A DNA stretch of 64,000 bases from Ostreococcus lucimarinus (taxonomy: Eukaryota). Location of the stretch: assembly GCA_000092065.1 (NCBI GenBank), contig CP000585.1; one strand, written 5' to 3'. The notes below the pieces were generated by a model. The model was not told the DNA's origin. It made no database searches and saw only the letters and a program-made list of their open reading frames with translations. Both the position numbers and the translations under genes were made by a program. Below are positions 29-56,954 of this stretch, in pieces. How positions within the stretch are numbered: position 1 is the stretch's first letter; every line of letters starts with the position of its first letter.

Positions 29-970
29 ATGATCGCACAACGCGCGTCCACGACGCGAACGATCGCGACGCCGACGCGCGCGACCGAAGCGCGACGCGCG
101 CGCGTCGTCGCGAACGCGGCGGACCGAAAGATGTGGTGCGTACGAACGGAAGCGCGGATGGGGGAATCGGAAGGAAGAATTACGTCGCGGGCGAACGCGC
201 GAGCGTCGCGCGCGCGCGACGCGTCGCGCGACGCGTCGATGCGCGCGCGATGGCATCGGACGTATCCGAGATACGGGATATCTGATATGGCGCGCCGCGC
301 GCGATCGGGCGACGACGGTTGGGAGGGCGAATCGGTCGCGCGACGCGCGAGTGACGCGCGGGTGGCGATGCGAATGATGATACTGACGGAATGATTCGAT
401 GCTTACGCGCGATGTAGGTTGCCCGCACCGTACAAGGCGCCGGCGCACCTCGACGGCACCGTCGCCGGGGACTACGGCTTCGATCCTCTCGGCTTGGGCA
501 GCGACCCGACGCGCCTCAAGTATTACCAAGAGGCGGAGCTCATGAACGCTCGATGGGCGATGATGGCTGTTGCGGGTATTGTCGGTACCGAAATCGCGGG
601 CATCGAACCGCGATGGTGGGAAGCCGGCACCGAGGATTACGGATTCCCGCCGCAAGCGCTCCTCGCGGTGCAGCTTCCGGTGATGGGGTACCTCGAGAAC
701 AAGCGCATTCAAGGTTGGTTGGCCACCGGTTCGAGCGGTGTGAACGAAACCTTCCCGTTCGACCCGATGGGCATGGGCTCTAAGGACGAGAAGATGAAGC
801 TCAAGGAGATCAAGAACGGCCGCGCCGCCATGATCGCCTTCGTCGGCATCGTCGTGCAAGGCATCGTCTACCGCGAGGGCCCGGTCGCCGCGCTCAAGGA
901 TCACGTCGCCAACCCGTTCGGTTGCAACATGGCGACGAACATCATGAACATCCCGGTGAACTTGGCGTAA
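29..970 (+). CDS. Light-harvesting chlorophyll a/b-binding protein (green-lineage LHC, prasinophyte Lhcp-like), 2 exons: join(29..135,418..970)
   Basis: Exon 2 has the LHC helix-1 and helix-3 motifs (GDYGFDPLGLG, ELMNARWAMMAVAG, EIKNGRAAMIAFVG) and carries no in-frame ATG. ATG 29 opens an Ala/Arg/Thr-rich 35-aa transit-peptide-like exon that ends ...RKMW at a GTGCGT donor (136). The acceptor TAG|G at 415-417 restores frame (TG+G = Trp) into LPAPYKAPAHLDG. Confidence 0.8.
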
Positions 971-1144
971 ACTGAGCTACGACGTTTAACGGACGTACGA
1001 TTACGCCCGATGTGTACACCGATCAGTCAACAAACAACCACCCTTAGAAGCGCGTAGCGTCGTTGTGAGCACGAGAGACGTAAAAAGCGAATCCGCGCGA
1101 ATCCGCGCGTCACATCGCCGCGTTCGCCCGGTCTGCGTCGCGCG

Positions 1145-2701
1145 ATGCCGCCGAAGCGCGCGCACGACGCGCCCGCGTCGACGATCGACGTGCGCGTGCG
1201 ATTCCCCGGCGAACGCGACGCGACGCGCCTCGCCATCGACGCGCGCGCGCCGACGGTGCGCGCCGCGATCGAGGCGCTCACGAAGGCGCGTCGGGACGTG
1301 CGCGACGCGCTGTCGACGTCGTACGCCGGGTTTGAGATCGCGCTGAGCGCGCGAGGAACGAACGACGACGGCGCGACGCTGCGGGAAGACGCGCCGTGCG
1401 CGAAAGACGAAGAGTACGTCGCGCGGTTGACGCGAGCGTACGCGCTGCGAGCGACGACGCATCCGACGCGCAAGTACGTCGTGGGACGATTTAAGGGAGA
1501 ACGCACGCCGGTGTTCAGCGTGGGAGAGCGCGCGCCGGTGGAGTGGCAGATGCGACACGCGAAGAGCGATGCGAGTGGGAACGCGTTGGTGCTCACGGGA
1601 GGGAAAAAGGGGAACAAGGGCGCGTACACGGGGACGCGAGACGCGCAGAGCGCTTCGTACTTTGTGCTCATGTCGCACAGGGATGAAGCGACGGCGACGG
1701 TGCGAGAATTCGTGGCGATGCCGTGTGAGGACTGGTATACGTTCACGCATAACGTACAGCGGCGAGTGTTCACGCTGGAAGAGGCGGAGGCGAGGATGGA
1801 GGCGGGGAAACGCGCGGTGGGCGAGGCGTGGGGACGCATGGATCGAACGGTGGACGAACCGGGGTACTCGGACGACGAGAGCGACGGCGATAGAGGTGAG
1901 CAGAGGGACGAATCGAGCGATGAAGAGGACGCTTTTAAGGCAAAGAAAGGGAAGAAAAAGGCGATTCAAGGCGTCGGTCTCGATAGCGACGACGAAGACG
2001 ACACCGGGAAGAAATCGGGCAAGCCGGCGCGCAAAAGTCAGGACGAAGGAGGCGAGGATTGGGAGCACGACGAGGAGTGGGACGACGACGAGGATGACGT
2101 CGCGATTCCAGAGGACGAAGAGGCACCGAAAGACCCGACGAAGACGCACGCAGACAGCGATGCGGAGGACGAGGGATTAGATGAAGAAGGTTTAGCCGTG
2201 AAAAAGTTGCTCGGCAAGCAAGAAAAAATGCAAGCCGGTCAGTTTAGCGATTCCGACTCAGACTCCGAACTCGAGGAAGATTTTAACCCGGACAACGACG
2301 ATATCGCCGCCAAGGTCGTCGGCTCTTTCGTCGAAAGAAGCAAAAAATTGGAGGCTGAGGAAAAAGCCGAAGCGGCTGCGCAACCGATGGCGAAATCCGC
2401 GTCGGCGTCCTCCATCGGCGTCAAGCGGAGCGCGAGCGACGTCGACACCGCCGCGCCACTGGCCAAGACAGCACGCGTCGCGCCACCGACGGCACCGAAA
2501 CAATCTCCGATCCAGGCTGTGATCATCGACGTCGTGCGCAAAAATCCCGACAGCACCACCGTCAAGCTCATCACGAAGACGTGTCGCAAGAAAGGCTTGT
2601 TGAACAGCACCGCCGGTGCCGAGGAGCTCAAGGAAGCGATCAAAAACTTGCTCGTCATGAAGAAACTTCGCGATGGCTCTCAAGTCTTAGTGTTGAAATA
2701 A
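1145..2701 (+). CDS. TFIIF alpha (RAP74)-like transcription initiation factor
   Basis: 518-aa ORF starting at ATG 1145. It has an N-terminal globular region, a long Asp/Glu/Ser-rich charged middle and a C-terminal winged-helix-like tail (KKGLLNSTAGAEELKEAIKNL), matching the known TFIIF-alpha architecture. Confidence 0.45.
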   Translation: MPPKRAHDAPASTIDVRVRFPGERDATRLAIDARAPTVRAAIEALTKARRDVRDALSTSYAGFEIALSARGTNDDGATLREDAPCAKDEEYVARLTRAYALRATTHPTRKYVVGRFKGERTPVFSVGERAPVEWQMRHAKSDASGNALVLTGGKKGNKGAYTGTRDAQSASYFVLMSHRDEATATVREFVAMPCEDWYTFTHNVQRRVFTLEEAEARMEAGKRAVGEAWGRMDRTVDEPGYSDDESDGDRGEQRDESSDEEDAFKAKKGKKKAIQGVGLDSDDEDDTGKKSGKPARKSQDEGGEDWEHDEEWDDDEDDVAIPEDEEAPKDPTKTHADSDAEDEGLDEEGLAVKKLLGKQEKMQAGQFSDSDSDSELEEDFNPDNDDIAAKVVGSFVERSKKLEAEEKAEAAAQPMAKSASASSIGVKRSASDVDTAAPLAKTARVAPPTAPKQSPIQAVIIDVVRKNPDSTTVKLITKTCRKKGLLNSTAGAEELKEAIKNLLVMKKLRDGSQVLVLK

Positions 2702-2712
2702 CGAACGGTAAT

Positions 2713-3282
2713 ATGCTTCTCCGACTCGTTCCTCGCGTCGGTGCCGCACTCTGCGCCGCGAGCCGTCGCGGCGTCATGAATTCTCCCTGGTCCGACGTCG
2801 TGCGATCGATCTCGGCCTCGTGGACCTCCATAGCGGTCACCATCGCATGTATATACGTCTTGCGCCTCTTCTTAATCCCCAAGCGCGGCGCGGTGACGCG
2901 CGGCGACGACGAAGACGAGGACGAGGACGATGAGACTTTTCCCGAGCCCATGCCAAAGGGCGACTTGACGACGGCTGCGTTGCGCGCGTACGACGGGAGC
3001 GACCCCGCGAAGCCAATACTGCTCGCCGCGAAAGGCATCGTGTTCGACGTCACGCGTGGGAGGGACTTTTACGGAAAAGGTGGACCGTACAACGCGTTCA
3101 CTGGGATCGACTGCTCGCGAGCGCTGGGCAAGGTGAGCCTGGAGAAGGAAAATTTATGCGCCGACGTGGGGGATTTCGCGGCGAGCGAGCGAGATGCGCT
3201 GAATCAGTGGGTGGGGAAATTTGAGGATAAGTATCCAGTCGTCGGAAAGCTGACGGATGGGAAGTACAACGGGAAGTTTTAG
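2713..3282 (+). CDS. Cytochrome b5-like heme/steroid-binding domain protein (MAPR/PGRMC family)
   Basis: N-terminal TM segment, acidic linker, then the Cyt-b5-like MAPR motif LRAYDGSDPAKPILLAAKGIVFDVTRGRDFYGKGGPYNAFTGIDCSRAL. ATG at 2713 is in frame just after the TFIIF stop. Confidence 0.75.
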   Translation: MLLRLVPRVGAALCAASRRGVMNSPWSDVVRSISASWTSIAVTIACIYVLRLFLIPKRGAVTRGDDEDEDEDDETFPEPMPKGDLTTAALRAYDGSDPAKPILLAAKGIVFDVTRGRDFYGKGGPYNAFTGIDCSRALGKVSLEKENLCADVGDFAASERDALNQWVGKFEDKYPVVGKLTDGKYNGKF

Positions 3283-3350
3283 GAGATTTAACGTGACGAC
3301 TTCGCCTCTGTAGCCGGCGACGACTTTGTAGTTACATCAGCATCTAGTTT

Positions 3351-5093: not shown

Positions 5094-5186
5094 CGACGGC
5101 GTCGCGAAGTGCTGCCGAAACGTGACGACGTCGTCACGTCGCGTCGCGCCGCCGCGCGGGGGCGATCGCGCCGCCTCGCGACGGCG

Positions 5187-8054: not shown

Positions 8055-8815
8055 ATGGCTGACCAAATGGTGCGTCCCGACCTCGCGTCGAACGACAGAA
8101 ACAACCTTCGCGTCGTTCGTTCGTTCGCGCGCGCGCGCTTCGACTCGCCTCGCGCGCATCGTCGCGTCATCGTCTCGTGCGTATTGACCCTAACCGCGAC
8201 GTCCTCGGACGATCTTTCTCGACGCAGAGCGTGCAAACCTTCGGGCGCAAGGTACGTCGTCGCGCATCGATCGGTGACTCGTAATCGCATCTCTCGTATC
8301 GCGCGTCGTTCGCGACGCGGCGTCATCGGTGGGAGGCGCTCGTGCGGGATGGTTTCGCGGCGTGCGATCCGCTAGGGCTTGGGTTTGGACTCGACTGACG
8401 CCGAAACGCTCTTCTCGCGCAGAAAACTGCCGTCGCCGTGGCGCACACGAAGCGGGGCAAGGGCTTGATTCGCCTTAACGGTGTCCCGATCGATCTCGTG
8501 CAGCCGGACACGCTCCGACTCAAGGCGGTCGAACCCATTCTGTTGCTCGGTAAGGAGCGATTCGCGAACGTGGACATTCGCATTCGCGTGAAGGGTGGCG
8601 GACACGTGTCGCAAATGTACGCCGTGCGTCAGGCGATTGCGAAGTCTCTCGTGGCGTATTACCAGAAGTATGTCGATGAGGCGAGCAAGAAGGAGATCAA
8701 GGACCTTTTGTTGGCGTACGACAGAACCTTGCTCGTCGCGGATCCGCGCCGCATGGAGCCGAAGAAGGCTGGCGGTCGCGGTGCCCGCGCGCGCTTCCAA
8801 AAGTCTTACCGTTAA
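8055..8815 (+). CDS. RPS16: 40S ribosomal protein S16 (uS9), 3 exons: join(8055..8069,8227..8250,8423..8815)
   Basis: Exon 3 matches eukaryotic RPS16 almost residue for residue ([20 protein letters not shown]...[51 protein letters not shown]). Exon 2 is the 8-codon SVQTFGRK between CAG| and a GTACGT donor. Micro-exon 1 is ATGGCTGACCAAATG ending at a GTGCGT donor. Spliced product is 143 aa: [21 protein letters not shown]... Confidence 0.85.
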
Positions 8816-26683: not shown

Positions 26684-28461
26684 ATGGCGCGCGACGACGA
26701 CGACGACGACGACGACCGGCGGTGGTACGCGCGGCTGGTGCCCATCGTCGATGAGTCCGCGCGCGTGAAACACGTCGATCGAGCGGCGCTGACGAAGACG
26801 GCGGACGGATGCGCGCGCGCGCGCGACGCGGCGACGGCGACGGCGCGCGACGGCGCGCTGCGACTGCGCACGCGAAGCGCGGTCCTCGGACGGATCGTCA
26901 TGAACAAGGAGGGCACGGCGCGGGCGAAGACGCAACCGGCGGATCTGGCGCTGGACGTCGCGAGCGGTGCGCGCGAGGCGAGGGCGAGGCGAGAGAGGGG
27001 GAGCGCGAGCGACGCGTTTGAAATTTGGATTCAAACGCGCGCGAGGACGAGGGGCGAAGGGTTCGGGCGCGAGCGAGCGGGCGATCGATGGCGCGGACGG
27101 ACGATCGAAAGATCGAGGGAATCGAACGCGCGGGGGACTGACGGACGCGCGCGCGTCGTGGAATCCAAATCGTAGTGAGCGCGAAGCACGCGGTGATTAC
27201 GTGCGAGGTGAAGGACGCGAAGGTGTCGCCGCCCGAGTTTGAGATTAAAATCATCGACTTGTCGCGAAATGGGGTGATGCTGAACGGCGAACGGATCAAT
27301 AAGGATGAGTATTACGAGCTCAAGGATGGGGACGCGGTGACGATGCCGTTTCATTTGGAGTATAGGTTTGAGCTGAATCCGGACGGAACGTTGCCGAGGG
27401 CGACGCGCGTGCCCGTGGACGAGACGCCGACGCCGCTGCAAAAGAAGCGCGCGTCGCCGGCGACGGCGGCGGTGGAGAACGGCGGCGGTGCGAAGAAACC
27501 GCGCGAGAGCTGCGATGATAACGAGGGACAAGGCCAGGCCATGCGCGAGTTGACGACGGAGAACGGAGAGTTGCGTCAACGCGTGGAGGCGCTCGAGAAG
27601 GAGCTCGAAGAGGCGCGACGCCGCGAAAAGGAGGCAGCGGCGCCGACCGAGGCGGCGGAGGGCGACAACGATGACGTACGCGCGGAAGCGCTTCGCGAAG
27701 CCGAGGAAAAAGTGAAACAAGCCGAAGCACGCGCGGAAAAGCTCAACGCTGAGCTCGAGGAGGCGCAGGCGGTGGTTGAAGGCGCGGCGAGCGCGACGAA
27801 GGAGATGGAAACCAAGCTCGCGGAGTTGCAATCGGCGCTCGACGCCGCCGAGACGAAGCGCGTGGAAGCCATCGCGAGTGTTCAAAAGGAATGCGCCGAG
27901 GAGATTGAAAATTTGAACGCCCGCGTCGCTCGAATCCAGTCGGTTCGCAAGGAGGAGCTTGAAGAAGCCGAAGCTCGCGTCAAGGCGTTCGCGTCATCGG
28001 CGCGAGAATCGCGCGATTTAGCAAAGCAACTCTTGGACAAACTCAACGAAAGCGTTCAATTGGTCGCGAGCGACGCGGACGCCGCTCACGGCGACGACGA
28101 CGAGATGACGCACGAGACGACGCCTCAAAGACGAGACGGCTCCGACGAAAAAGCCGCCGAGGACGCCGCCGAGGACGAACCCGCAAAGGACGACGACGAC
28201 GACATCAACGATAACGACGACGACGACGACATCAACGATAAAGACGACGATTCCCTCGAACAATTGGACGTCGACAACCACTTTTCCGACTCCATCTTAG
28301 CCGACGTCGAGTTCCCGCCGACGGAGAAGCCGACGCAAGTCGCCGCGCCTCTGCACGACATCGGCAACTCGCCGCGCACCGACCAACCGTCTCCGAGCAA
28401 GCGCGTCGGTCGCGATATCGACGACCGTTCGCCCCTTCCCGCGAGCGTCCTCGAGGACTGA
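26684..28461 (+). CDS. FHA-domain coiled-coil protein, 2 exons: join(26684..26966,27176..28461)
   Basis: Exon 2 opens inside an FHA fold (VSAKHAVITCEV...IIDLSRNGVMLNGERINKDEYYELKDGDAVTM) without an ATG. The upstream frame (MARDDDDDDDDRRWYARLVPI...AVLGRIV...LALDVAS) ends at G|GTGCGC (26967) and joins TAG|TG at 27175 in phase to give ...DVAS-V-SAKHAV. Long coiled coil and an acidic DDDDINDNDDDDD tail follow. Confidence 0.6.
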
Positions 28462-28548: not shown

Positions 28549-30045
28549 ATGCGCGTCGCGCCCGCGCGCGATTTCACGCCCGCGCGTTCGACGACGACGA
28601 TGCGCGCGTCGCTCTCGCGCGCGATCGCTCGCGCCGTCCTCCGCGCGCCGTCGCGCGCGTCGCCGTCCCGGCGGCGTCCCGGCGCGTCCCGAGCGTTCGC
28701 GCGCGACGCCGACGACGCCTCGCGCGTCGCCGTCCTCGGCGGCGGCGCCGCCGGACTCACCGCCGCGTACTTCGCCGCGCGCGCGGGCGCGCGGGTCACG
28801 GTGTACGAACGAACGAGCGAGTGCGGGAAGAAGATTTTGATGTCTGGCGGCGCGCGGTGCAACGTGCTGCCGACGAGCGCGACGGCGAACGATTTCACCA
28901 CGGAGAGCGCGAATCGACGATTGAAGGCGGTGCTCGCGTCGTGGTCCGTCGAAAGATGTCGAGAGTGGCTGGAGACGGAGATTGGATTAGGGCTGGGGAT
29001 TGAGATCGCGTCGAATAAATACTTTCCGCTGAGCAACTCGTCGAGGGAGGTGCGGGATAGATTGGTCGCCGCGTGCGAGAAGGCGGGAGTGGAATTCAAG
29101 TACGAGACGAGCGTCGATGGGGTGGTGCGAGGAAGCGATGGGATGGGATGGACGCTTCGAGTGCGAGGGTCGGGAGACGAACGCGCGCGCGCGATCGTGC
29201 TCGCGATGGGAGGGCTGAGTTTTCCCGCCGTCGGAACGGATGGCACCGGGTACGCCATCGCGAGGCGGGATTTAGGACACGCGTTACACGAGCCGTATCC
29301 CGCGTTGGTGCCGCTGACGGGACCGCATCCGGGCGGCGAACCCTTACCAGGGGTCTCCGTCGAAGTCGAGCTGAAGGTAGCGGCGGCGAACGCCGACGGT
29401 GGCGGTGGGAAGAAGAAGGCGCAAGCGATTCGCAAGGGGTTTCTCTTCACGCATCGCGGGTATTCTGGACCGAGCGTTTTGGATCTGAGCCATCACCTGG
29501 TACGGCCGCTGGTGCGAGCGAACGAATCCAAAGGTGGAAGCTTACGAGACGAAGATTTTGACGCTCCGACGTCGTCGTCGCCGAGAATGGTGATTAATTG
29601 GAGCGGCATCAAACGAGAAGAGTGGCAAGAGCGCCTCACAGCGCCGCCGGGCCGAGCGCTCGTCGTCAGCCGACTACGCGAAGCGCTTCCGAGTCGCCTC
29701 GCCGACGCCCTCGTCGCTGAATCCGGCGTTGATTCGCGATGTAAAATTGCCGAACTGAAAAAGGACGATCGCGCGAAGCTTCTGCGCGTGTTGACTGAAT
29801 ACGAAATCGCGGTGAAAGGTCATCAAGGGTATCGCAAGGCTGAAGTCACGGGTGGCGGCGTAGCTTTGGATGAACTCGACACGGCGTCGATGGCGAGCTT
29901 GAAGGCGCCGGGAATTTATATGTGCGGTGAAGTTTGTGACGTGTTCGGCAGAATCGGTGGATTTAATTTTCTATGGGCGTGGTGTAGCGGTAGACTGGCA
30001 GGAATGAGTGCGGCGAAGGCCATTTCGAGCGCGGACGACGAGTGA
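28549..30045 (+). CDS. HI0933/BaiN-like FAD-dependent oxidoreductase (aminoacetone-oxidase family) with transit peptide
   Basis: VAVLGGGAAGLTAAYFAARAGARVTVYER dinucleotide-binding motif; SGGARCN; C-terminal GEVCDVFGRIGGFNFLWAWCSGRLAG. ATG 28549; the first ~60 residues are Arg/Ala/Ser-rich. Confidence 0.75.
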   Translation: MRVAPARDFTPARSTTTMRASLSRAIARAVLRAPSRASPSRRRPGASRAFARDADDASRVAVLGGGAAGLTAAYFAARAGARVTVYERTSECGKKILMSGGARCNVLPTSATANDFTTESANRRLKAVLASWSVERCREWLETEIGLGLGIEIASNKYFPLSNSSREVRDRLVAACEKAGVEFKYETSVDGVVRGSDGMGWTLRVRGSGDERARAIVLAMGGLSFPAVGTDGTGYAIARRDLGHALHEPYPALVPLTGPHPGGEPLPGVSVEVELKVAAANADGGGGKKKAQAIRKGFLFTHRGYSGPSVLDLSHHLVRPLVRANESKGGSLRDEDFDAPTSSSPRMVINWSGIKREEWQERLTAPPGRALVVSRLREALPSRLADALVAESGVDSRCKIAELKKDDRAKLLRVLTEYEIAVKGHQGYRKAEVTGGGVALDELDTASMASLKAPGIYMCGEVCDVFGRIGGFNFLWAWCSGRLAGMSAAKAISSADDE

Positions 30046-36843: not shown

Positions 36844-37992
36844 CTAGGAGTTTCGTCGATTCACGACTGATATATCACCATCCTTTAGAACAGAAACCTC
36901 GAGAACACCACTCGATCTCGTCGCAACTTTGCCGACAACCTCGACATGAACATCCGTGTCGGGGTAGGGGTTGTCCGAGAGACTCACCGTGATGTCGCCC
37001 CTGGGTTTCGACATTTGACAACCGCGCTTTTTACCGACGACCTCGGGCAACTTGTCATCAAGAAATCTAGCATAGCCGCTCGCCGCGCTACCCGTCACGG
37101 GATCTTCGTCGATACCGACATCCGGCCCAAACCATCGCGTGTAGAAATCGTACGAATGATTCGGCCGATTTTTCACCGTCAAGAGCACGCACAAACCACG
37201 AAAACCTTGAACCATTTCAAAGTCGTACTTCATTTCCTCGATGAAGCACCTCCCCACTTCCGATATCGCCTTCAGATCGGGCGCGTGATTCATGAAGCGG
37301 TCGAAACACGCCTCAAACACCTCGTCGGGTGCATCATCCGTGTCGATTATGAAAAACAAGTCGCCGATGAAGTTGTACCGAAGCTCGTACTTCGCCTTGG
37401 AAGTCGCAGAGCTCTGCGAGTTCGAGCGCTCGTGGTCGTCGCCAAAGCAGCCTCGAATCATGTTCACGATTTCTTGAGGGTGTAAGAACCCATCCTCACC
37501 AAGCGCGTCCGGAAAGGATCTCGCGCGTTCCTCCGGAAGTGCCATCGCGTAGGACGACTCTACACCGCCGTCCAAATCTTTCCACACGAACAACGACTCG
37601 TAAGCGGCTTTCACTTGTGTTCCATCGCACACATCACGCGGCTTGCCGTATAAAAATCCAATCTTAGTGACGTGCTCGTTCCCCGGCGCTCGAAAAATCT
37701 CGTGCGCCGTCGCCATCGACGCGTGCCCGCACAGATTGATCTCGCACTTTGGCGTAAACCACCGTATGTCGTACATCCGATGCACCATCGCGCCGACGAC
37801 CTCCACGTCTGCCCGCTTCGCGAACGCCGTCTCGCTCAAGCCTAATTCGCTCGCCGCCGCCTGCATCACCGCGTCCGGCGGCCACGGTCCATCGTCCGGC
37901 AAAAGCACCACGGCCGCGGGATTCCCACTGTCGTCGCCTTTCGTCGCCGACGGGAACGCGTTCGCGATCGCGTACGCGTGCCTCGTCGTCAT
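36844..37992 (-). CDS. PhzF-family (phenazine biosynthesis-like / DAP-epimerase fold) protein
   Basis: GNPAAVVLLPDDG...SELGLSETAFA...RWFTPKCEINLCGHASMATAHEIF plus a second half-domain. ATG 37992 (MTTRHAYAIANAF) sits directly downstream of a (TCAA)n leader on the minus strand. Confidence 0.75.
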   Translation of the reverse strand: MTTRHAYAIANAFPSATKGDDSGNPAAVVLLPDDGPWPPDAVMQAAASELGLSETAFAKRADVEVVGAMVHRMYDIRWFTPKCEINLCGHASMATAHEIFRAPGNEHVTKIGFLYGKPRDVCDGTQVKAAYESLFVWKDLDGGVESSYAMALPEERARSFPDALGEDGFLHPQEIVNMIRGCFGDDHERSNSQSSATSKAKYELRYNFIGDLFFIIDTDDAPDEVFEACFDRFMNHAPDLKAISEVGRCFIEEMKYDFEMVQGFRGLCVLLTVKNRPNHSYDFYTRWFGPDVGIDEDPVTGSAASGYARFLDDKLPEVVGKKRGCQMSKPRGDITVSLSDNPYPDTDVHVEVVGKVATRSSGVLEVSVLKDGDISVVNRRNS

Positions 37993-37996
37993 GTCT

Positions 37997-38023
37997 GATT
38001 GATTGATTGATTGATTGATTGAT
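37997..38023. repeat. (GATT)n tetranucleotide microsatellite, ~6.75 units
   Basis: gattgattgattgattgattgattgat read directly. It lies 5 bp upstream of the PhzF ATG in its 5' leader. Confidence 0.95.
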
Positions 38024-47900: not shown

Positions 47901-48483
47901 ACCTTTCTCCGCCCTCGCGCCGCGCTCAATCCCCCCTCCGTCGCGTTCGGTCCTCGCAACGCCGCCAACATCGCCAACTCAAACACCGTCGTTTTCCCGC
48001 TCCCCGTCGGCGCGCCTGCGTTCGCGTTCGACGCGCGATCACGCGTTCATTCGTCAGTCCTTTCCAAAACGAGGCACTCGCCGCGCGTCTCGCGTTCGCG
48101 TCGCGTCACGCACTCATCACGAAGCTCCGTCGCGTGTTCACCAAAAACTCGAGCATCTCGCTCTGAATGCTGTTGAAATACCTACGACGCGCGCGTCGTC
48201 GCGACGCCTTCGCGTCAGTCCGTCGCGTCGCGCGCGACACCGTCGTTCCCGCGCGACCGTTGCGAACGCACTTGAAATCAAACGCTCTGGCCGTGTCTAA
48301 AGGTTCTATGTCCGTCGTCGCGCGCAGCGCGTCCCGACGCGGACGCGCGTACATGACGCGTCGCGATGATTTCTTTCGTTCGCGCGCGCGCGCGCGTCGT
48401 CGCGCGACGCGCGTCGTCGTGTGCGGACCGCTCTTTCCCCTCGCGCGAAGTGCCGAGTCTCTCGGAACTGGAGACGAGTCCAT
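44984..48483 (-). CDS. MER3: MER3/HFM1-type Ski2-like DNA helicase (meiotic crossover helicase) with three C-terminal CCHC zinc knuckles, 2 exons: join(complement(48113..48483),complement(44984..48014))
   Basis: Exon 1 ends ...RYFNSIQSEMLEFLVNTRRSFVM at A|GTGCGT. Exon 2 begins after ACGCAG| giving VMSAPTGSGKTTVFELAMLAAL (motif I). DEVH (LIDEVHLIGD), a Sec63 domain, and CNRCGVKGHWAKDC / CRRCGELGHFARDC / CKICQQHGHRARDC knuckles follow. The exon-1 start is uncertain (ATG 48483 or 48354). Confidence 0.75.
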
Positions 48484-48570: not shown

Positions 48571-50313
48571 ATGCGCGCGCGACGCGAGACGACGACGGAC
48601 GACGCGAGTCGCGCGTCGGACGCGCGCGACGACGCGTCGACGCCGGAGACGTCGGCGAAACGCGACGCGCGATACGAATATGAGATCGCGTTGGGGAGCA
48701 GTGGATGGTTGTTCGTGTATTACGTCGGCGTCGTCAAGGCGATGCGCGAACGAGGGATGGCGAGGTGCGCGTTGAAGATGTTTGCGCGGTGCGCGCGCGG
48801 TTCGGAACGCGACGGCGCGCGAGAGGGTGGTTCGGTGGCGTAAGATGGGGACGCCGACGCCGGACGACGCGTCTCGCGCGACGACGGATGACTGACGAAA
48901 CGGCGGCGATTTTACGATGCGCGCAGTAAAACGAAGGTGTACGGGACCTCTGGTGGGGCACTTTCGGGGGCGTTGTTGTTCATGGACTGCGATTTGGACG
49001 CGTTGGCGCAGTATGTGTACATTTGCGCGGCGCGAGCGCGGCGGTCGGTGTTGGGGGCGTTTCAACTGCGCGCGTACTGTCGAGGCGCGATGACGGAGTT
49101 TTGTGATCCCAAGGCGCATGAGTTACTGTCCGGGAGGTTTGAAGTGTCGATCACGAGAATACTGCCGTCGTGGAAGAATCTACGAATCAGTTCGTTTCCG
49201 ACGTATGACTTTTTGATTCAGGCGTTGTTGTGCTCGGCGTGCATCGTGCCGCTGAGCGGGTTGCCGATGTGGTTGCGAGGTTTCGGTTTGTGCCTGGACG
49301 GTGCTGTGACGGACATGCAGGTTTGGAAAGGGTTTAAGAAAGATGGCACCTTCAGCAAGTTGCATTGCAAGGAGGCGAACCCGAACATCGTCATCGTCAA
49401 TCCATTTTATTCGTCGCGGGCGGACATCAAGCCGAGCAAGTACATCCCGGTTTGGTGGTGCTTTTACCCGCCAGAGCCGTACAAATTGAAGCAGCTCTTC
49501 GAGATGGGATACGCAGACGCGCACGATTGGTACGAGCGCACGCACGGCTTAGCGAAAACATTGAAGTCGTCGCCCAAAACGCGAGCGGTGGGCAGCGACG
49601 ACGGCGCTTCCGCGGAAGACGAAGAACCGCCGCGAAGCTGGGCGACAGACTGTCAAGAGTGGGCGAGCCAGAGCGCAGAGACGGCGGCTCGCCGCGCGGC
49701 CGCTGCGGCTGAATCCGCGCGTCGTGCGGCGGCAAAACACGCCGACGAGTTTGGATCTTTCATGAAGCACGAAGCCGAGCTCGTGACGCGCATGAGTTTC
49801 AAAGCAGCCGAGGTTGCGTCCGCGGCGGCGCGAAGCGTGAGCGAGATGAAGGACGACAGAAATTTCGCAGAGCGCGCCGACGCCGCGGCGCACGCCACCT
49901 TAGACGCGTTTGTCGTCGTCGGCAAGGGTACCATCATACCCTTCAGATTGGTTCTCAAAATTGCCGCCTGTTTGCTCGTTTACATGGAGCTCGTAGTTCA
50001 AGCGTTCGTCGCCTTTGTCGGCGCCACGGTGGCGTGCATCTTTCCGGGTAAAGTCGGTCGACAGGGCACTGAGTTGTGGCACAGGTGCCGGGCATTTTCC
50101 CAACCGTTGCCGCGTGTGTTGCTCCAAGCCGTACCAGGAATCAAAATTGAGGCGAAAATCAACGAACGTACCGCTAAACAGCTCGGAGAGCTGTCCGCGT
50201 TGTACCGTTTGCTGTGTTATCTCGTGCACATGGAGGAGCGCGAGTTCGAGATTCTTCGAAAACGACTTTCGCAAGGCAATCTAAGCGCGCTCGTAGACGA
50301 CGTTAAAACGTAG
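48571..50313 (+). CDS. Patatin-like phospholipase domain protein, 2 exons: join(48571..48764,48927..50313)
   Basis: Exon 1 carries the oxyanion-hole block EIALGSSGWLFVYYVGVVKAMRERGMA and ends AG|GTGCGC. Exon 2 follows GCGCAG| and continues S-KTKVYGTSGGALSGALL (the GxSxG lipase motif). Long C-terminal extension with predicted helices. Confidence 0.7.
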
Positions 50314-50445: not shown

Positions 50446-51318
50446 CTACCACCACGCCTTTTCGCCGTCGGTACCCGCCACGCGGATACCGTCGCTTCCG
50501 GCGACGATGACTTGGTACGCCATGCCAACGAACAAACCGTGATCGACAACGCCGACGGTGTTCTTCAACTGGTTCGCCGCAGCCACCGGGTCCGCGAGCG
50601 GCGTCTTGAAGTGCAAATCCACGATGTAGTTGCCGTTATCCGTCACCGCGATGTTATCGCCGTCGTTCTTATTGTTCGACGACGACCCCATGCGCAAGAT
50701 CGGTTCGCACCCAGCCAACGCCGGAAGCTTACCGATCGTTCGCAGCGTGTGCATGTGGCAAAACGGCGTGATTTCCACCGGCAAAGGGAAACCCGGTCCG
50801 AGACCCTTGCAAAGCTTGGACTCGTCCACGATGACGACAAACTTCTTCGCCATGACCTCAACCATCTTTTCTCGCAGCAGCGCACCACCGCCGCCCTTCA
50901 CGAGCGCCAACGCCGGATCAACCTCATCCGCACCATCGATCGCGACGTCCAATTCGCTCTTTTCATTCAGCGTGCACAACGGAATGTTCAGCGACTCGGC
51001 TTGCTCGCGCGTGCGCTCGCTCGTCGGGATGCAAATCACATCCTTGAGCTCCCCGCTCGCCAGCTTTTGTCCGACGCGTTCGACCGCGTAGTACGCCGTG
51101 GATCCCGTACCGAGGCCGACGACCATACCGCTCGTCACGTGGTCGTCCACGGACTTGTATCCGACGAGTTTCTTCAGTTCGTCTTGGCTCAGCGCCATGG
51201 TTTTCGTCGTCGAAGATCGCGCCTTGGCGAAGCGTCGCGCGGGCGCGAGCTTGGAGCGGTCGAGCGCTTTGGAGACGACGGTCGTTCGCGCGGTCGCGGT
51301 GAGGCCTTGGGCGAGCAT
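50446..51318 (-). CDS. RPI: Ribose-5-phosphate isomerase A with plastid-type transit peptide
   Basis: VVGLGTGSTAYYAVERVG...DVAIDGADEVD...KGGGGALLREKMV... is typical RpiA. ATG 51318 (MLAQGLTATARTTVVSKALDRS...) gives a 40-aa presequence; the internal Met at 51198 is the alternative start. The rest of the 841-aa track ORF upstream is spurious. Confidence 0.85.
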   Translation of the reverse strand: MLAQGLTATARTTVVSKALDRSKLAPARRFAKARSSTTKTMALSQDELKKLVGYKSVDDHVTSGMVVGLGTGSTAYYAVERVGQKLASGELKDVICIPTSERTREQAESLNIPLCTLNEKSELDVAIDGADEVDPALALVKGGGGALLREKMVEVMAKKFVVIVDESKLCKGLGPGFPLPVEITPFCHMHTLRTIGKLPALAGCEPILRMGSSSNNKNDGDNIAVTDNGNYIVDLHFKTPLADPVAAANQLKNTVGVVDHGLFVGMAYQVIVAGSDGIRVAGTDGEKAWW

Positions 51319-51400
51319 CGACGGGCAGACGGCGCGCGCGTCACGGTATGAGGCGCGGCCGCGTGTTATCCATCGGCACTCACGCGCGCCCGCGAGCGCG

Positions 51401-53860
51401 ATGCGCGCCTCCGACGACGCGGGCGTCGATCGCGATGTCGTCGATCGCGCGGACGACGCGGGGCGCGACGACGCGTCGACGGCGCGCGCGAAAGGCGTGG
51501 ATGAGGAAACGGCGTTGCCGCTCTGGACGCGCTTTCTGTGCGAACTGCGCGGCGAATTGAGCGCGGAATCCATCGCGGTGCGCTCGCACACGTGGCGGGA
51601 GATCGACATCGTGTCCTCGCTCGTGCGCAAGGTGGCGGGACGGACGACGGGGACGGTGAAGATCGGAAGGGTGTTCACGGCGGCGAACGAGCGCGGCTGC
51701 GCGGCGCTCGTGGGCGAGGAGATGGAAGATTTCGGCGGTGAAGACGAGATATCGAGGGATGGGGACGTGATGGCGAAGAGATTACGAGCGAGGACGTGCC
51801 GAGTGGCGGTGAGCACGCTGGAGCGGGACGTGAACCTGGGTGCGGTGGACGGGAGAAATACGAAGGTGGTGCTCTTCGTGACGGTGCCGCAGTCGTTGCA
51901 CCCGCGAGGGGCGCTGGAGGATCTGAGCCGGTTGGAGGCGCTGAAGACGATGAAAATGGGATTTAGAAAATTGATCGCTGAGACAGATTTCGTGCGGGAC
52001 TGCAGAGGGGCGAAGATGGCTTCGGAAGTTGTGAGCGCGTACGAGGAGGCGTGTTCGGTGCTCACCGGACAACATTTTCGCCGAGCCGAGGCGGAGGCGC
52101 AGATGGCGTCCAAGCGAGGCGCCGATTTCACAGGAAAATTTGCTGGGGGTATTGTGAGCGATTTCAAGCGACGATGGGCGGTGTATAAGAGTGATTGGGT
52201 CGATGGATTCAAGGCGCCGACGAAGTGCTTGAGCGCGACGCTCTTCATGTACTTTGCTTGTCTCGGACCTGCAATCGCGTTCGGGGGGTTGGCGTATAAA
52301 GAAACGGACGGGCACGTCGGGGCGATGGAATATTTGTGCAGCCAAGCGCTCAGTGGGATAATATGGGCCGTGTTCTCGGGACAGCCCGAGATCGTGCTAC
52401 GCCCGGCGGGTCCGCAGACGGTGTTCCTCATAGAACTGTTCAAACGATGCAAGGCGTGGAGGATCGACTTCCTCGTCACGTCTGCGTGGGTCGGGGTTTG
52501 GACTGGGATTTTCATGCTATGTATTGCCTCATTCGACGCGTGCGCTTGGGTCGCGAACAAGTGCACAAAGTTTACGCAAGATATATTCAGTCTCTTTGTG
52601 TGCGCGATTTTCATCTTTGAAGGATTCAAAAACTTGTTCACGTACTTTTCAGACGACAAATACTCAACCGCAGCCGCTTTGTTTAGCTTGATGTTAGGTG
52701 TCATGACGTTACAACTTGGTCTGTGGGCGGTGCATCTTCGCAGTTCGCCGTATATGAACGCGACTATTCGTGAACTCACCGCGGATTTTGGTCTGGCCTC
52801 CGCCGTCATCATCGCGAGCGTCACGGCGAAGCTGTCGAAGATTTCGGGGCTGGAGCACTTACAAATTTCAAACAACTTTGAACCTTCTATGCAGCGCGAT
52901 TGGTGGATTGATTTGGGTTCAGGCGATAAGTTCATCCCCTTGATTGCAATCTTCCCAGCTCTCATGCTCACGGCGTTGTACTACGTCGACATGAACGTGG
53001 CGACATTGCTTTGCAACACGCCGCGCCTGAAGATGCGTAAGGGCGCGGCTTATCATTACAACTTTGCCGTGCTCGCAATATTGGTCTTCATCACCTCGAT
53101 GCTCGGACTGCCACCTCCCACGGGATCGCTGCCGCACTCGCCGCAGTACGTGTTGGCGCTCAGCGACGTAGAAGAGTACACCGTGGACGGCGAGACGCGC
53201 ACGAAAGTCATCAAGGTGCATGAACAGCGACTCAGTCCGCTGCTTGTCAACGTTCTCGTAGCTCTGAGCTTCGTCGTGATACCCGCGCTAAAATCAATCC
53301 CCATGAGTGTGCTCTTCGGATTGTTCATCTACACCGGCATCATGGGATTGTACGACAACCATTTCTGGGAGCGGATCACCATCGCGTTCATGGAACCGCG
53401 CTTGCATCCGCCGACGTCGTACGTCAGGCACGTACCGCTCAGTCGCGTGCACGCATTTACGTGCGTACAAATCGCGTGTGTCGGTGTGCTATGGGGTATT
53501 CGAAGCTCGCCGATCGCCTTGACGTTTCCCATCTTTATTTTAGCGTTGATGCCGCTTCGCATTTTACTGTTCAAGAAGTTCAACATGTTTTCGCCGGAAT
53601 GGCTCGAACTCTTGGACGCAAAGGGCGCAAAACCGTACGAGGTGGACGAAGACAACCAAATCATGGAAGATGGTCGGGAGAACAAATGGTTGTCCAACAC
53701 CGGCACGGCGAGCGCTTCGAATTTCATGGAATTCGCCGGCTTGCACGAATCCGGTCCCGCATTCGGCAACGCGGCGTCCTTACACGCGCACACGCGTTCC
53801 GACGCGGATGCCATGATAACAGCGCGAAATCGGATACCACTTACACCGCTTACGAAATAA
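51401..53860 (+). CDS. SLC4-family anion exchanger / borate (BOR1-like) transporter
   Basis: Cytoplasmic N-domain followed by ~12-14 TM segments. Conserved blocks are FGGLAYKETDGHVGAMEYLCSQALSGIIWAVFSGQP, IPLIAIFPALMLTALYYVDMNVATLL and VLALSFVVIPALKSIPMSVLFGLFIYTGI. ATG 51401 chosen as the first Met beyond the divergent RpiA start. Confidence 0.75.
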   Translation: MRASDDAGVDRDVVDRADDAGRDDASTARAKGVDEETALPLWTRFLCELRGELSAESIAVRSHTWREIDIVSSLVRKVAGRTTGTVKIGRVFTAANERGCAALVGEEMEDFGGEDEISRDGDVMAKRLRARTCRVAVSTLERDVNLGAVDGRNTKVVLFVTVPQSLHPRGALEDLSRLEALKTMKMGFRKLIAETDFVRDCRGAKMASEVVSAYEEACSVLTGQHFRRAEAEAQMASKRGADFTGKFAGGIVSDFKRRWAVYKSDWVDGFKAPTKCLSATLFMYFACLGPAIAFGGLAYKETDGHVGAMEYLCSQALSGIIWAVFSGQPEIVLRPAGPQTVFLIELFKRCKAWRIDFLVTSAWVGVWTGIFMLCIASFDACAWVANKCTKFTQDIFSLFVCAIFIFEGFKNLFTYFSDDKYSTAAALFSLMLGVMTLQLGLWAVHLRSSPYMNATIRELTADFGLASAVIIASVTAKLSKISGLEHLQISNNFEPSMQRDWWIDLGSGDKFIPLIAIFPALMLTALYYVDMNVATLLCNTPRLKMRKGAAYHYNFAVLAILVFITSMLGLPPPTGSLPHSPQYVLALSDVEEYTVDGETRTKVIKVHEQRLSPLLVNVLVALSFVVIPALKSIPMSVLFGLFIYTGIMGLYDNHFWERITIAFMEPRLHPPTSYVRHVPLSRVHAFTCVQIACVGVLWGIRSSPIALTFPIFILALMPLRILLFKKFNMFSPEWLELLDAKGAKPYEVDEDNQIMEDGRENKWLSNTGTASASNFMEFAGLHESGPAFGNAASLHAHTRSDADAMITARNRIPLTPLTK

Positions 53861-53981
53861 TACCAGTGAGCTTCGGTGCGAGGGGGTTTGGACCGCAATT
53901 GGTAGACGTTTTTAATATTTAGTGAATTTTTGTGCGTTGCACTCATGAATCTTGAATTTCGATGGGTCGACTAACGATTGA

Positions 53982-54722
53982 CTAACGATCGGGCGAAAGA
54001 GGTCTAAGTTCGACGGATTTGCTTCGCACGTGGCGCGGCACGCTTCGCGAGCGCCGACCGAACGCGAATCGATACAACACTCCCAGCGTGCGATGCACGC
54101 AGAGCGCCAAGATGAGCGTGTACGTCGCCTGAAACAAAGTGTTTATGTGTCGATCCGTCGCGTAAGGCTTCAGAAGATCGATTTGTTTCATCTTTGCCTT
54201 CATCTTTCGACGCACAGGCGCTAGATTGCTTTGTACGTTTCTGATTTGCCGCGCGTACCCGCGCTTGGCGCGCTCGCCCGCGTTCTTCAGCGCCGGCGCC
54301 GCCTTACGCATCCCGTCTTCAATCAACGGTTTCGCATCGCGAACGAGCGTCTTCGCGCGTTTCACACCCTCATTCGCCGCATCCTTCGCCATTCGCACCA
54401 CTTCCGCCGCACCCGCGCCTCGGCGCGCTTCCTCCAGAGCCTCCTCCAGTTTCGCCACCTCCGCCCGCGCCTTCTTCTTCTCCGCCGCCTCGAAATTCGC
54501 CCGCGCTCGCTCCCGCATCGCCTCGCCTCGAAACTTCGCCGCCTCCGATTTCGCCGCGCCGACGTCCCGCCGCATCGCGCTCAGGTGCCTCTGGCACTCC
54601 GCGACGCCCTCGTTCGCCTCCGCGCGTCCCGCCGCGAGCGCGCACGCGCACGCGCACGCGCACGCCGCGACCAACCTCACCGTCGTCCGACGCCGTCCGC
54701 GCGCGCGTCCCGACGCCCGCAT
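53982..54722 (-). CDS. Hypothetical amphipathic-helix protein with signal-like N-terminus and C-terminal TM
   Basis: 246 aa from ATG 54722. MRASGRARGRRRTTVRLVAACACACACALAAG leader, with the (CA)4 run encoded by a (GCGCAC)4 repeat. Lys/Glu/Ala-rich helices follow, and the C-terminus has lower-GC, clearly coding-like sequence (KMKAKMKQIDLLKPYATDRHINTLFQATYTLILALCVHRTLGVLYRF). Confidence 0.4.
   Translation of the reverse strand: MRASGRARGRRRTTVRLVAACACACACALAAGRAEANEGVAECQRHLSAMRRDVGAAKSEAAKFRGEAMRERARANFEAAEKKKARAEVAKLEEALEEARRGAGAAEVVRMAKDAANEGVKRAKTLVRDAKPLIEDGMRKAAPALKNAGERAKRGYARQIRNVQSNLAPVRRKMKAKMKQIDLLKPYATDRHINTLFQATYTLILALCVHRTLGVLYRFAFGRRSRSVPRHVRSKSVELRPLSPDR
54640..54663. repeat. 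(GCGCAC)4 hexanucleotide repeat inside a coding region
   Basis: gcgcacgcgcacgcgcacgcgcac read directly. Encodes the ACACACAC tract of the hypothetical protein on the minus strand. Confidence 0.9.
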
Positions 54723-55029
54723 GTCCGCCGCTCACTTCGTCGCCGTCGACGCGCGCAGCGCGAACCCGTGCGCGAACACGAGCACCGCCAGCGCCGCGCC
54801 CACCGGCGCCCCGATCTTAATCCTCGAATCGCTCGACCGCCTGACCGCGATCCCGAGCGCCGGTATCGCCGGCGCGAGCGCGATCGGCCAGAGGTTTCCG
54901 TATTCCACCGCGCGCGTTCGTCTCGCGTCGCGCGCGTCGCTCGCGTCGCGCATGCGCGCGCCGCGATCTGTCGCGCGGGCCGTCGGTCTTCTTCTTCGCG
55001 TTACAATCGATCGTCGCGCGCGCTACGAG

Positions 55030-55408
55030 CTACGACAGCGCGCTTCTCGCGCCCGCGATCACCACCGCCCATCCACCGAGCACGGCGAACACCACCTGCG
55101 TCGCGTCGCGCGCGTCAGTCGTGGAATTCGCGTCGCATCGGCGTCGAGGGCGTCTCGGATCGATCGATCGATCGCGCGCGTCGCGGCGTCGCGCGATCGA
55201 TCGCGCGTCGCGGTCGCGCGCGACGCGTCGCGAGACGCACGTGCTCCTCCTTCCAATTGCTCGGGTTCATGGGGTCGTGCCACGGGTAGGGCACCTTGGG
55301 CGGCGCGTTCGGGTCGCTCGCGTACGACCGGCGCGCGATCGTCGACGGCGCGCGCGCGGGCGCGTTCGCGAGCGCGCGATGCGCGACGCGACGGAGGGCG
55401 GCGTGCAT
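55030..55408 (-). CDS. Small (~77 aa) mitochondrial-type single-pass membrane protein, 2 exons: join(complement(55241..55408),complement(55030..55095))
   Basis: Exon 1: MHAALRRVAHRALANAPARAPSTIARRSY (presequence-like) then ASDPNAPPKVPYPWHDPMNPSNWKEEH, ending at CAC|GTGCGT. Exon 2 after GACGCAG| encodes VVFAVLGGWAVVIAGARSALS* (one TM helix). Resembles small respiratory-complex accessory subunits, but the family is not identified. Confidence 0.5.
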
Positions 55409-55770
55409 GACGTCGAGCGACGGCGCGCGAGGGCGACGGTCGAGCGCGGGCGTCGACGAGCGTCGACGAGTGCGGGGGGGGGCGCGAGAGGGCGACGCGC
55501 GGGCGACGACGCGGCGCGGGAGAGGGTTCGAGGAAGGCGCGCGAGCGACGGGCGCGAACATCGATTGGGTGCGCGCGGTGTTTTTCTTCGCCGGGCTGGG
55601 GATCGGGTTGCGCGCGTTCGGCGAGCGGGGGGTGCGGGGACGCGCGAAGACGCGCGCGCGCGACGAAGGCGGGCGACGCGGCGGCGAGCCTTTGTAATAA
55701 TTTGTTGTAATCATCACATCACTAGGCGGCTAGCTATGGTCAAACGCTCGAACGTTCTTTACCGCTTTTT

Positions 55771-56954
55771 TTATTGCGGCGGCGGCGGCGGGACGTTCAT
55801 CATCCCGGGCGGCGGTGGCACGTTCATCATCCCGGGCGGCGGCGGCGCGTTCATCGTCCCGGGCGGCGGCGCGACGCCGGGCGGCGGCATCGCGAACCCA
55901 CCGACGGGGGCGAAACCGCCCATCATGGGTGGTGGTGGTATTCCACCCATCATTCCCGGCGGCGGCGGCGGCATGCCGACCATTCCGGGCGGAGGCGGCG
56001 GCAAACCCATCATGCCGCCCATCGCCGCGGGCGTGCTCGAGGGGCCGGCGCTGAACAACGTGTGCGGGCGAACCATCGTCGGTCGTTCGATCGATTGCGC
56101 GAGCAAACGCTCGGCTTGTGACCCATGACGCTCGCCTTTGCTATCCTTCTTGTACGCGTACTGAACGTTGATTTGCTTGTTGCACAAGAACTGTCCGTTC
56201 ATCGCCTCGATGGCGGCGTCCGAGGCCTCAAACGAATCGTACGCCACGAATCCGAATCCCTTGCTCGCCCCGTTATCCGGGTCGCGCATGATTTTAGGAG
56301 TGTTAATCACCACCCCGAACGCGCTGAAGGTGTCGTACAACAGCTTTTCGTCGATGTCTGGATCGAGGTTACCGATGAACAAGTTGGCGCCGACTTCGTC
56401 GCGTCTGTCGCCCACCGACTTGTTCACCTTGATCGGTTTCCCGAACAGTTTCACCATGTTCAAAATTTTAATACCCTACACGCGCACATCGCCATCGCAC
56501 CGTCTCGTCAGTCTCCACGTCGAGCTTCGATCGCGTCGCGTCTCCCATCGCGCGGTGACTCAGCCGAAGAAATTCAACCATAATATCGTCTAACCTCACG
56601 AGCGTGAACTCATCAGAAGCGCGGATATTTTTATCATCATCGTCACCGATCTCGCATCCCATCGCGTCGCGTCGCGTCGCGTCGCGTCGCTCGACGCACG
56701 TATTCCGCGTCTTCCTCGTTTCTGAACTCCACGAACCCGTACCCCTGGTGCGTGCTCGTCACCCTATCCTTCGGCACGTACACGTTCGTCACCGGTCCCG
56801 CCTGCAGGAACAGCTCCCACAGCACCTCCTCCGTGACTTGCGGGTCGAGATTCCCGACGTACACCGTCGCCTCGGCGTTCCTATCCGCGCCGTGCTGCCC
56901 GAGCAAGTTCACGCCCGCGCCCGCGGTGATTCGCCCGCCTGCGATCGGCGCCAT
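55771..56954 (-). CDS. SF3B4: Splicing factor 3B subunit 4 (SF3B4/SAP49), 2 exons: join(complement(56700..56954),complement(55771..56475))
   Basis: Exon 1 holds RRM1 ([57 protein letters not shown]) and ends at a GTGCGT donor. Exon 2 after TAG| reads [19 protein letters not shown] + RRM2 ([25 protein letters not shown]...[55 protein letters not shown]) and a PPPPGM-repeat tail. Near-identical in order to human SF3B4. Confidence 0.9.
56666..56690. repeat. (GTCGC)5 pentanucleotide repeat within the SF3B4 intron
   Basis: gtcgcgtcgcgtcgcgtcgcgtcgc read directly. It sits 9-33 nt downstream of the GTGCGT donor (on the minus strand). Confidence 0.9.

Follow-up and report, generated by a model that had tools for sequence, protein, structure and literature searches.

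Nearly uniform GTGCGY donors and a shared branch-site octamer in the introns of a 64-kb stretch of the Ostreococcus lucimarinus genome

In the window, by which I mean the whole stretch of 64,000 nucleotides of Ostreococcus lucimarinus DNA that was analysed, nine of ten introns start with GTGCGY and the remaining one with GTACGT, and this almost invariant donor is a lineage-wide consensus, not an artefact of the introns chosen in the initial annotation. There is every indication that these U2-type spliceosomal introns belong to the ordinary, canonical class found on the normal-GC chromosomes of this member of the Mamiellophyceae. Their GTGCGT and GACTGACG signals are already known, as they were published for Ostreococcus and Micromonas between 2008 and 2013. 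The specific intron marker is the branch octamer GACTGACG, not the donor hexamer alone. The ten introns are:

136..417, plus strand: LHC (Lhca5-like) intron, 282 nt; donor gtg/GTGCGTAC, branch TACTGACG at 382-388 (31 nt to the 3' end), acceptor TAG.
8070..8227, plus strand: RPS16 intron 1, 158 nt; donor atg/GTGCGTCC, branch CCCTAACC at about 8190, acceptor CAG.
8252..8422, plus strand: RPS16 intron 2, 171 nt; donor aag/GTACGTCG (the exception, GTACGT), branch GACTGACG at 8394-8400, acceptor CAG.
26967..27175, plus strand: intron of the FHA-domain gene, 209 nt; donor gcg/GTGCGCGC, branch GACTGACG at 27137-27143, acceptor TAG.
48182..48271, minus strand: MER3/HFM1 intron 1, 90 nt, missed in the initial annotation; donor caa/GTGCGTTC, branch GACTGACG at 48219-48213, acceptor TAG.
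48016..48113, minus strand: MER3/HFM1 intron 2, 98 nt; donor tga/GTGCGTGA from 48113, branch GACTGACG at 48058-48052, acceptor CAG.
48765..48926, plus strand: intron of the patatin-like gene, 162 nt; donor gag/GTGCGCGT, branch GACTGACG at 48891-48897, acceptor CAG.
55096..55240, minus strand: intron of the gene for a 77-aa predicted protein, 145 nt; donor cac/GTGCGTCT, branch GACTGACG at 55119-55113, acceptor CAG.
56476..56699, minus strand: SF3B4 intron 2, 224 nt, host of a C/D snoRNA; donor tac/GTGCGTCG, branch GACTGACG at 56512-56506, acceptor TAG.
56939..57063, minus strand: putative SF3B4 intron 1, 125 nt; donor cgg/GTGCGTTC, branch GACTGACG at 56966-56960, acceptor CAG 23 nt downstream.

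Seven of the eight donors first reconstructed had been given as GTGCGT or GTGCGC, and all seven hexamers, at 136(+), 8070(+), 26967(+), 48113(-), 48765(+), 55240(-) and 56699(-), are true intron starts; six of the positions were given correctly, whereas that in MER3 had been placed at 48112 and is actually 48113, with the minus-strand hexamer running from 48113 to 48108. The GTACGT of RPS16 intron 2, singled out as the exception, is indeed seen at 8252, and every acceptor is CAG or TAG, in line with the (C/T)AG proposed. Both introns added beyond these eight, MER3 intron 1 (annotated) and SF3B4 intron 1 (putative and unannotated), start with GTGCGT. With 2.1% of the GT dinucleotides in the window starting GTGCGY, the binomial probability, given GT, of at least seven such donors among eight is 1.3e-11, and of at least nine among ten, with the two extra introns included, 6.9e-15. 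Position +4 is a C in all ten donors, while +7 is a G in just three introns and the last exon base (-1) in just six. All ten have GT...YAG boundaries with a G at -4, and the branch signal contains ACTGAC in nine, extended to GACTGACG in eight; the sole other branch site, CCCTAACC in RPS16 intron 1, has CTAAC. Branch-to-acceptor distances range from 19 to 38 nt, intron lengths from 90 to 282 nt and intron GC from 58 to 74%; the GC of the window (0.53-0.67) fits a normal-GC genome.

The junctions of nine of the ten introns, namely all eight of the initial annotation and MER3 intron 1, are used by NCBI models of O. lucimarinus CCE9901: XP_001417828 (LHC), XP_001417833 (RPS16), XP_001417838 (FHA), XP_001418083 (MER3/HFM1), XP_001417843 (patatin-like), XP_001418086 (77-aa protein) and XP_001418087 (SF3B4). 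The three-exon MER3/HFM1 model (1060 aa), the two-exon SF3B4 protein and the spliced patatin-like and 77-aa proteins are identical to their entries, and XP_001417838 reads ...DVAS/VSAKHAV across the FHA junction, which the FHA Pfam domain spans. Splicing of MER3 intron 2 restores the helicase motif S/APTGSGKT, and that of SF3B4 intron 2 the RRM1 frame EEDAEY/GIKILNM. The spliced open reading frames carry the expected Pfam domains (Chloroa_b-bind, Ribosomal_S9, FHA, DEAD+Sec63, Patatin and two RRM); the 77-aa protein, earlier called small mitochondrial-type, has no Pfam match. In the patatin-like gene another in-frame GTGCGC is present at 48789, 24 nt downstream of the donor.

A check of the junctions against transcripts had been called for, and removal from transcripts is observed for three of the ten introns. 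Exact 30-nt exon-exon junctions are found for the LHC intron (135/418) in six contigs (L001-L006), and for both RPS16 introns (8069/8228 and 8251/8423, flanking the 24-nt exon 2 at 8228-8251) in three (L007-L009). These nine independent, intron-less contigs are read as transcript assemblies, and the unspliced donor is absent from all of them. Support of the ten junctions thus comes from transcript sequence in three cases, from public models, reading frame and homology in six, and from signals alone in one (SF3B4 intron 1). It could be argued that the boundaries were set at GTGCG simply since the motif is common in GC-rich DNA, and the hexamer is indeed frequent (157 copies) without overall enrichment. 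However, transcripts and public models fix the junctions independently, the binomial probability is 7e-15, and no further introns with other donors came to light when gene starts and branch-like motifs in the window were surveyed, so that I regard such an ascertainment artefact as having a negligible chance of being the explanation.

The donor had also been considered diagnostic of introns, a claim that the counts contradict: of the 157 GTGCGY copies on both strands nine act as donors, so that the hexamer predicts a donor in about 6% of cases, and the total of copies lies below the 184 +/- 14 expected from shuffles. The scan for G/GTGCGY that had been proposed fares little better, with five true donors among 26 sites. 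A depletion of cryptic donors in the coding sense was looked for and none was found (76 copies sense vs. 61 antisense in coding sequence). A loose scan for GT[AG]CGY, CTRAC and the first AG gives 120 mostly spurious candidates, and the combination of loose donor, CTRAC and YAG is not enriched (18 observed vs. 28 +/- 6 in shuffles). The octamer GACTGACG, in contrast, occurs eight times in the 128 kb of both strands, and all eight copies are intronic; the strict triple signal marks 11 donor sites (shuffles: 4.5 +/- 2.4) and is confined to intron-bearing loci. With so many donor hexamers in coding sequence, site choice would have to rest on a combination of signals: the donor, the branch octamer, which is far less frequent, and a YAG close by, all within the limits of a short intron, i.e. 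intron definition.

Several further candidates were rejected. The CTGAC of 17418-17331(-) shares bases with the stop codon of the gene upstream, and at 38401-38204(-) the gene starts at the ATG at 37992. Candidates 29250-29350(+) and 46320-46257(-) lie within continuous open reading frames and would shift the frame, and 5807-5625(-) and 44248-44169(-) are antisense to coding genes.

The rigid donor had been taken to suggest U1 and U6 snRNAs tuned to GC-rich donors, i.e. that one or both have co-evolved to complement GUGCGU, as U1 has in Entamoeba. The donor does differ from GTAAGT at +3 and +4, where U1 positions 5 and 6 pair, and the possibility was raised in Irimia & Roy 2008 (PMC2483917). 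However, O. tauri snRNAs are canonical, with ATACTTACCTG at the 5' end of U1, GTAGTA in U2, the loop CTTTTAC in U5 and ACAGAGA in U6 (PMC7671301, supplement). A compensatory U1 was moreover sought with a flexible protocol in five Mamiellales including O. lucimarinus (Roy & Bowser 2022, bioRxiv 10.1101/2022.06.08.495308), and every species in which a single strong U1 candidate was identified has the standard pairing region. This evidence comes from a congener and a preprint survey, not from O. lucimarinus DNA read directly, and the window itself contains no snRNA gene. One spliceosome must also serve the very different introns of chromosome 2 (Irimia & Roy 2008). Co-evolution of U1 or U6 is already largely refuted, and I consider it very improbable.

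Under the preferred reading, ordinary U2-type introns, the very uniform signals of an intron-poor genome (G/GTGCGT at the donor, (G)ACTGAC(G) as branch site, and 19-38 nt further on a YGYAG acceptor without pyrimidine tract) would be recognised by a standard spliceosome with unchanged snRNA recognition sequences. The G at +3 would still wobble-pair with U1 position 6, and +1, +2, +5 and +6 would pair normally; likewise, the G of CUGAC would wobble-pair with U2, and the C at +4 would be a tolerated mismatch to both U1 and U6.

Pairing with snRNAs does not explain the preference for +4C. With U1, U2, U5 and U6 canonical and +3G and +4C almost invariant, recognition of the donor may lie with a protein or RNA modification peculiar to the spliceosome of the Mamiellales (e.g. 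U1C/LUC7-type factors, Prp8 or the modification state of U6) that has been retuned, which would make +3G/+4C a positively selected signal, more than a tolerated GC-biased variant. Consistent with such a readout, +4C is nearly invariant (10/10 here) although, judging from the standard U1 and U6 registers, it would pair with no snRNA, and the donor is fixed while intron interiors vary: environmental variants of the 77-aa gene have many SNPs and indels inside the intron, with GTGCGT, GACTGAC and CAG invariant. However, GC- and CpG-rich non-coding DNA (the introns are 58-74% GC) could favour GCG with unchanged machinery, and the same spliceosome handles the GTRNGT donors of chromosome 2 (PMC2483917). 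I regard a retuned reader of the donor as rather unlikely.

The ten introns could also be copies of one propagated, introner-like element, as in Micromonas, where introner families have GYGCGT donors and GACTGACG branch sites (PMC3879977); the introns of the window do share (GACGCG)n-like stretches. However, the matches in an all-against-all BLAST of the ten are only short, of low complexity and in several registers, without any collinear similarity, and the introns vary in length from 90 to 282 nt. The snoRNA of the SF3B4 intron also bears on this matter:

56556..56645, minus strand: box C/D snoRNA (Rfam snoU36a) in SF3B4 intron 2; Rfam 68.9 bits, E = 1.2e-12.

The branch A follows 48 nt downstream of the snoRNA's 3' end. 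The snoRNA has no variable sites in ten environmental contigs, and both its guide elements are identical to those of Ot-CDsno52, which is located on O. tauri chromosome 5. Synteny links the window to that chromosome and not to the outlier chromosome, and a counterpart there argues for the age of the intron. Introner copies thus seem a scarcely credible source of the shared signals.

SF3B4 may carry a further, unannotated 5' intron, the putative intron 1, and its retention or removal would switch between two in-frame start codons. It is absent from the public model and has a complete strict signal set, and its removal would bring 56938 into frame with a 25-nt first exon whose ATG is at 57088. 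Its signals and the mini-exon are invariant in ten environmental contigs (L011-L020), which say little on the matter because they are too close (97-99.5% identity). The protein collection has no entry for the 322-aa product of its splicing, a homology search for algal SF3B4 N-termini gave mostly plant proteins and no full-length Ostreococcus entry, and metagenome scans for the SF3B4 exon junctions 57064/56938 and 56700/56475 matched neither.

As the signals are published and the search for a compensating U1 has already been made with a negative outcome, the discovery value of these observations is small. Their value lies in annotation, as the signals, chiefly the branch octamer, recover tiny 5' exons missed by calling based on open reading frames. 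For RPS16 this is a 15-nt first exon, for LHC the exon of the transit peptide, and for SF3B4 possibly a first exon of 25 nt. The question posed by the literature is the strong preference for +4C though no snRNA pairs with +4; a protein or modification readout, if true, would amount to a retuned, non-snRNA recognition of 5' splice sites in the Mamiellales.

Among known systems, Entamoeba is also intron-poor with a nearly universal atypical donor, but its U1 has a compensating recognition sequence, which that of the Mamiellales lacks (bioRxiv 10.1101/2022.06.08.495308). The BOC or chromosome 2 introns of the Mamiellophyceae are found in the same genomes and are apparently served by a single common spliceosome, but they are 40-65 nt long and AT-rich, their GTRNGT donors are weak and a branch motif cannot be recognised in them (PMC2483917; PMC3879977), whereas those of the window are 90-282 nt long and 58-74% GC with strong signals. 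The canonical introns of Micromonas RCC299 and CCMP1545 are alike in donor and branch though of another genus; they prefer AG/GTGCGT and NCTGAC, and the class was described in all Mamiellophyceae (Verhelst 2013, PMC3879977). Their branch-to-acceptor distance is 43-52 nt, compared to 19-38 nt here, and the -1 G is present in six of the ten introns here. Closest are the EST-confirmed O. lucimarinus introns outside chromosome 2, with the donor consensus GTGCGTG (4.8 bits; Irimia & Roy 2008, PMC2483917), although the +7 G occurs in three of ten here. ACTGAC is found in 87.2% of those introns and 90% of these, and GACTGACG in 66.5% and 80%, respectively. The extended acceptor YGYAG of the window introns is not stated in the accessible part of that paper, from which nothing substantive differs: organism, donor, GT-AG boundaries and intron-poor, GC-rich context are the same.

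Every intron to which the initial annotation had assigned a GTGCGY donor (GTGCGT or GTGCGC) does begin with it, at the position claimed in all cases except MER3, where the minus-strand hexamer exists but starts at 48113, not 48112. The exception named for RPS16 intron 2 was also found, a GTACGT starting at 8252. Once spliced at these junctions, the genes read as open frames and show the domains expected of them (Chloroa_b-bind, Ribosomal_S9, FHA, DEAD plus Sec63, Patatin and two RRMs); the 77-aa protein, product of the gene with an intron at 55096-55240 (-), has no Pfam match to back its initial label of mitochondrial-type. Four of the spliced proteins match NCBI entries of O. lucimarinus CCE9901 exactly, namely XP_001418086 (77 aa), XP_001418087 (SF3B4), XP_001417843 (patatin-like) and XP_001418083 (MER3/HFM1), and the NCBI models of LHC, RPS16 and FHA contain the same introns as found here, with starts at further-downstream ATGs. 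The proposed check against transcripts was passed for three introns, that of LHC and both of RPS16, as the exact 30-nt exon-exon junctions 135/418, 8069/8228 and 8251/8423 are present, at 99-100% identity, in nine short contigs without introns, which I take to be transcript assemblies; eight come from Logan assemblies of sequencing runs and the ninth from a JGI sample. An unspliced donor was seen in none of the nine.

These contigs also support longer N-termini than those in NCBI. LHC (29-135, +) would comprise 219 aa from the ATG at 29, vs. 185 aa in NCBI, the extra stretch being a transit-peptide-like leader, and RPS16 (8055-8069, +) 143 aa from the ATG at 8055, vs. 139 aa; RPS16 of O. tauri likewise has 143 aa. 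One LHC contig of 2522 nt, aligned to 1-2721, spans the spliced LHC, a 174-nt spacer and the entire neighbouring TFIIF-alpha gene, which suggests overlapping or read-through transcripts in a very compact genome. At 51092-51318, high-scoring coding frames overlap head-to-head by 100-200 nt, one belonging to a gene on the minus strand (50446-51318) and the other to a plus-strand gene with an open frame from 51092 and a first ATG at ~51197. Two microsatellites were observed on the minus strand: (GTGCGC)4 at 54640-54663, within a coding region and translated to the Cys-Ala repeat ACACACACA, and (AATC)n at ~37996-38023, just ahead of the start codon (37992).

The window holds ~36 genes according to a codon-usage map. 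Inspection of every gene start, and of every branch-like motif outside the known introns, brought the census to ten introns in seven genes, two more than the eight listed initially, both with GTGCGT donors. A number of plain ORFs match NCBI or transcript-derived proteins exactly, and hence contain no annotated introns. The two additional introns, and a snoRNA discussed below, are as follows; GACTGACG is the branch-site octamer containing ACTGAC.

48271-48182, minus strand: MER3 intron 1, GTGCGT donor; in the NCBI model, absent from the initial list
57063-56939, minus strand: putative SF3B4 intron 1, GTGCGT ... GACTGACG ... CAG; unannotated in the NCBI model
56556-56645, minus strand: box C/D snoRNA, Rfam snoU36a, 68.9 bits; within SF3B4 intron 2

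The ten introns are 90-282 nt long with a GC content of 58-74%, in a window of 53-67% GC throughout. GTGCGY donors are found in nine of them, within the consensus (a/g)G/GTGCGT, and since only 2.1% of the GT dinucleotides in the window begin this hexamer, the probability of at least nine in ten is 7e-15. The branch site contains ACTGAC in 9/10 and GACTGACG in 8/10, with CTAAC in RPS16 intron 1, and 19-38 nt separate the branch A from the 3' end. Acceptors read YGYAG (e.g. 413-417, 8223-8227), with G at -4 in all ten introns and C at -5 in eight. Between branch site and acceptor, no polypyrimidine tract was found in any of the ten; the segment is GC-rich, e.g. GACGCGCGCGACGCGACGCAG. The patatin gene has two GTGCGC donors 24 nt apart (48765 and 48789, +), either of which is in frame with one shared acceptor; the donor at 48765 is that of the public model, and use of the other would add 8 codons.

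To call the donor diagnostic was, however, an overstatement, as the predictive value of GTGCGY alone is ~6%. The hexamer occurs 157 times in the window, less often than dinucleotide shuffles predict (184 +/- 14), and its 76 copies in coding sense give no sign of depletion there. The scan for G/GTGCGY suggested initially does recover five true donors, but among 26 sites in all. A loose triple of donor, CTRAC and YAG is not enriched (18 observed vs. 28 +/- 6 in shuffles), while the strict triple, which requires ACTGAC, leaves 11 donor sites, every one of them at an intron-bearing locus (shuffles 4.5 +/- 2.4). All eight copies of GACTGACG on both strands of the window are the branch site of an intron. 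As the donor is common in coding sequence, it is thus the branch site that provides the useful anchor for hidden exons.

SF3B4 probably carries an unannotated 5' intron, judging from its sequence. Removal of the putative intron 1 would connect a first exon of 25 nt, in frame, to the next exon (first exon and intron together 56939-57088, -), and the NCBI start codon at 56954 sits between its branch site and acceptor; both possible starts are in frame. The 322-aa product spliced at intron 1 had no match in the protein collection, two junction scans came back empty, and transcript evidence for the intron was not found. The snoRNA in intron 2 is invariant in ten environmental contigs; its 3' end precedes the branch A by 48 nt, near the optimum reported for splicing-coupled snoRNP assembly in mammals. 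It is the ortholog of Ot-CDsno52 on O. tauri chromosome 5, both guide elements being identical. Together with the GC content of the window and the exact protein matches, this places the window in the normal-GC genome and not in the low-GC outlier region on chromosome 2.

Ten environmental Ostreococcus contigs, 97-99.5% identical to the window, were compared. Inside the intron of the 77-aa gene they show many SNPs and indels, with GTGCGT invariant in the seven contigs covering it and GACTGAC and CAG in the six covering those. In four contigs (L012, L014-L016) multiple indels relative to 55096-55240 (-) leave the three splice signals unchanged; one of these indels, an insertion of ~11 nt downstream of the branch site, increases the distance to the acceptor from 19 to ~30 nt. 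The ten introns share only low complexity of the (GACGCG)n type, and intron-to-intron comparison found no collinear similarity among them; they are therefore not an introner family.

All ten introns are of the standard U2 type, and their signals are homogenised. The proposal that U1 and U6 are tuned to GC-rich donors is contradicted by the canonical snRNAs of O. tauri (U1 5' end ATACTTACCTG, U2 GTAGTA, U5 loop CTTTTAC, U6 ACAGAGA; PMC7671301 supplement), and by a screen for a compensating U1 in five Mamiellales with GYGCGY donors, with O. lucimarinus in the genome set, where the U1 pairing region was standard wherever a candidate was identified (Roy & Bowser, bioRxiv 10.1101/2022.06.08.495308). 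In the established U1 and U6 registers, GUGCGU would keep Watson-Crick pairing at four positions (+1, +2, +5, +6), with a G-U wobble at +3 and, at +4, a C mismatched to both RNAs, and the G of CUGAC would wobble with U2. Canonical snRNAs and this expected pairing leave the tuning idea unsupported at the RNA level. Behind the preference for C at +4 may lie a readout at the level of proteins, or simply a GC/CpG-biased drift that stays within what is tolerated.

The donor observation is correct and statistically overwhelming, yet already known. For O. lucimarinus introns confirmed by ESTs and lying outside chromosome 2, Irimia & Roy (2008, PMC2483917) reported an "atypical consensus GTGCGTG" of 4.8 bits, with ACTGAC in 87.2% and GACTGACG in 66.5%, whereas chromosome 2 introns have weak signals. 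The window (donor 90%, ACTGAC 90%, GACTGACG 80%) agrees with those figures. The canonical introns of Micromonas, with AG/GTGCGT and NCTGAC, have likewise been described as a class common to all Mamiellophyceae (Verhelst et al. 2013, PMC3879977).
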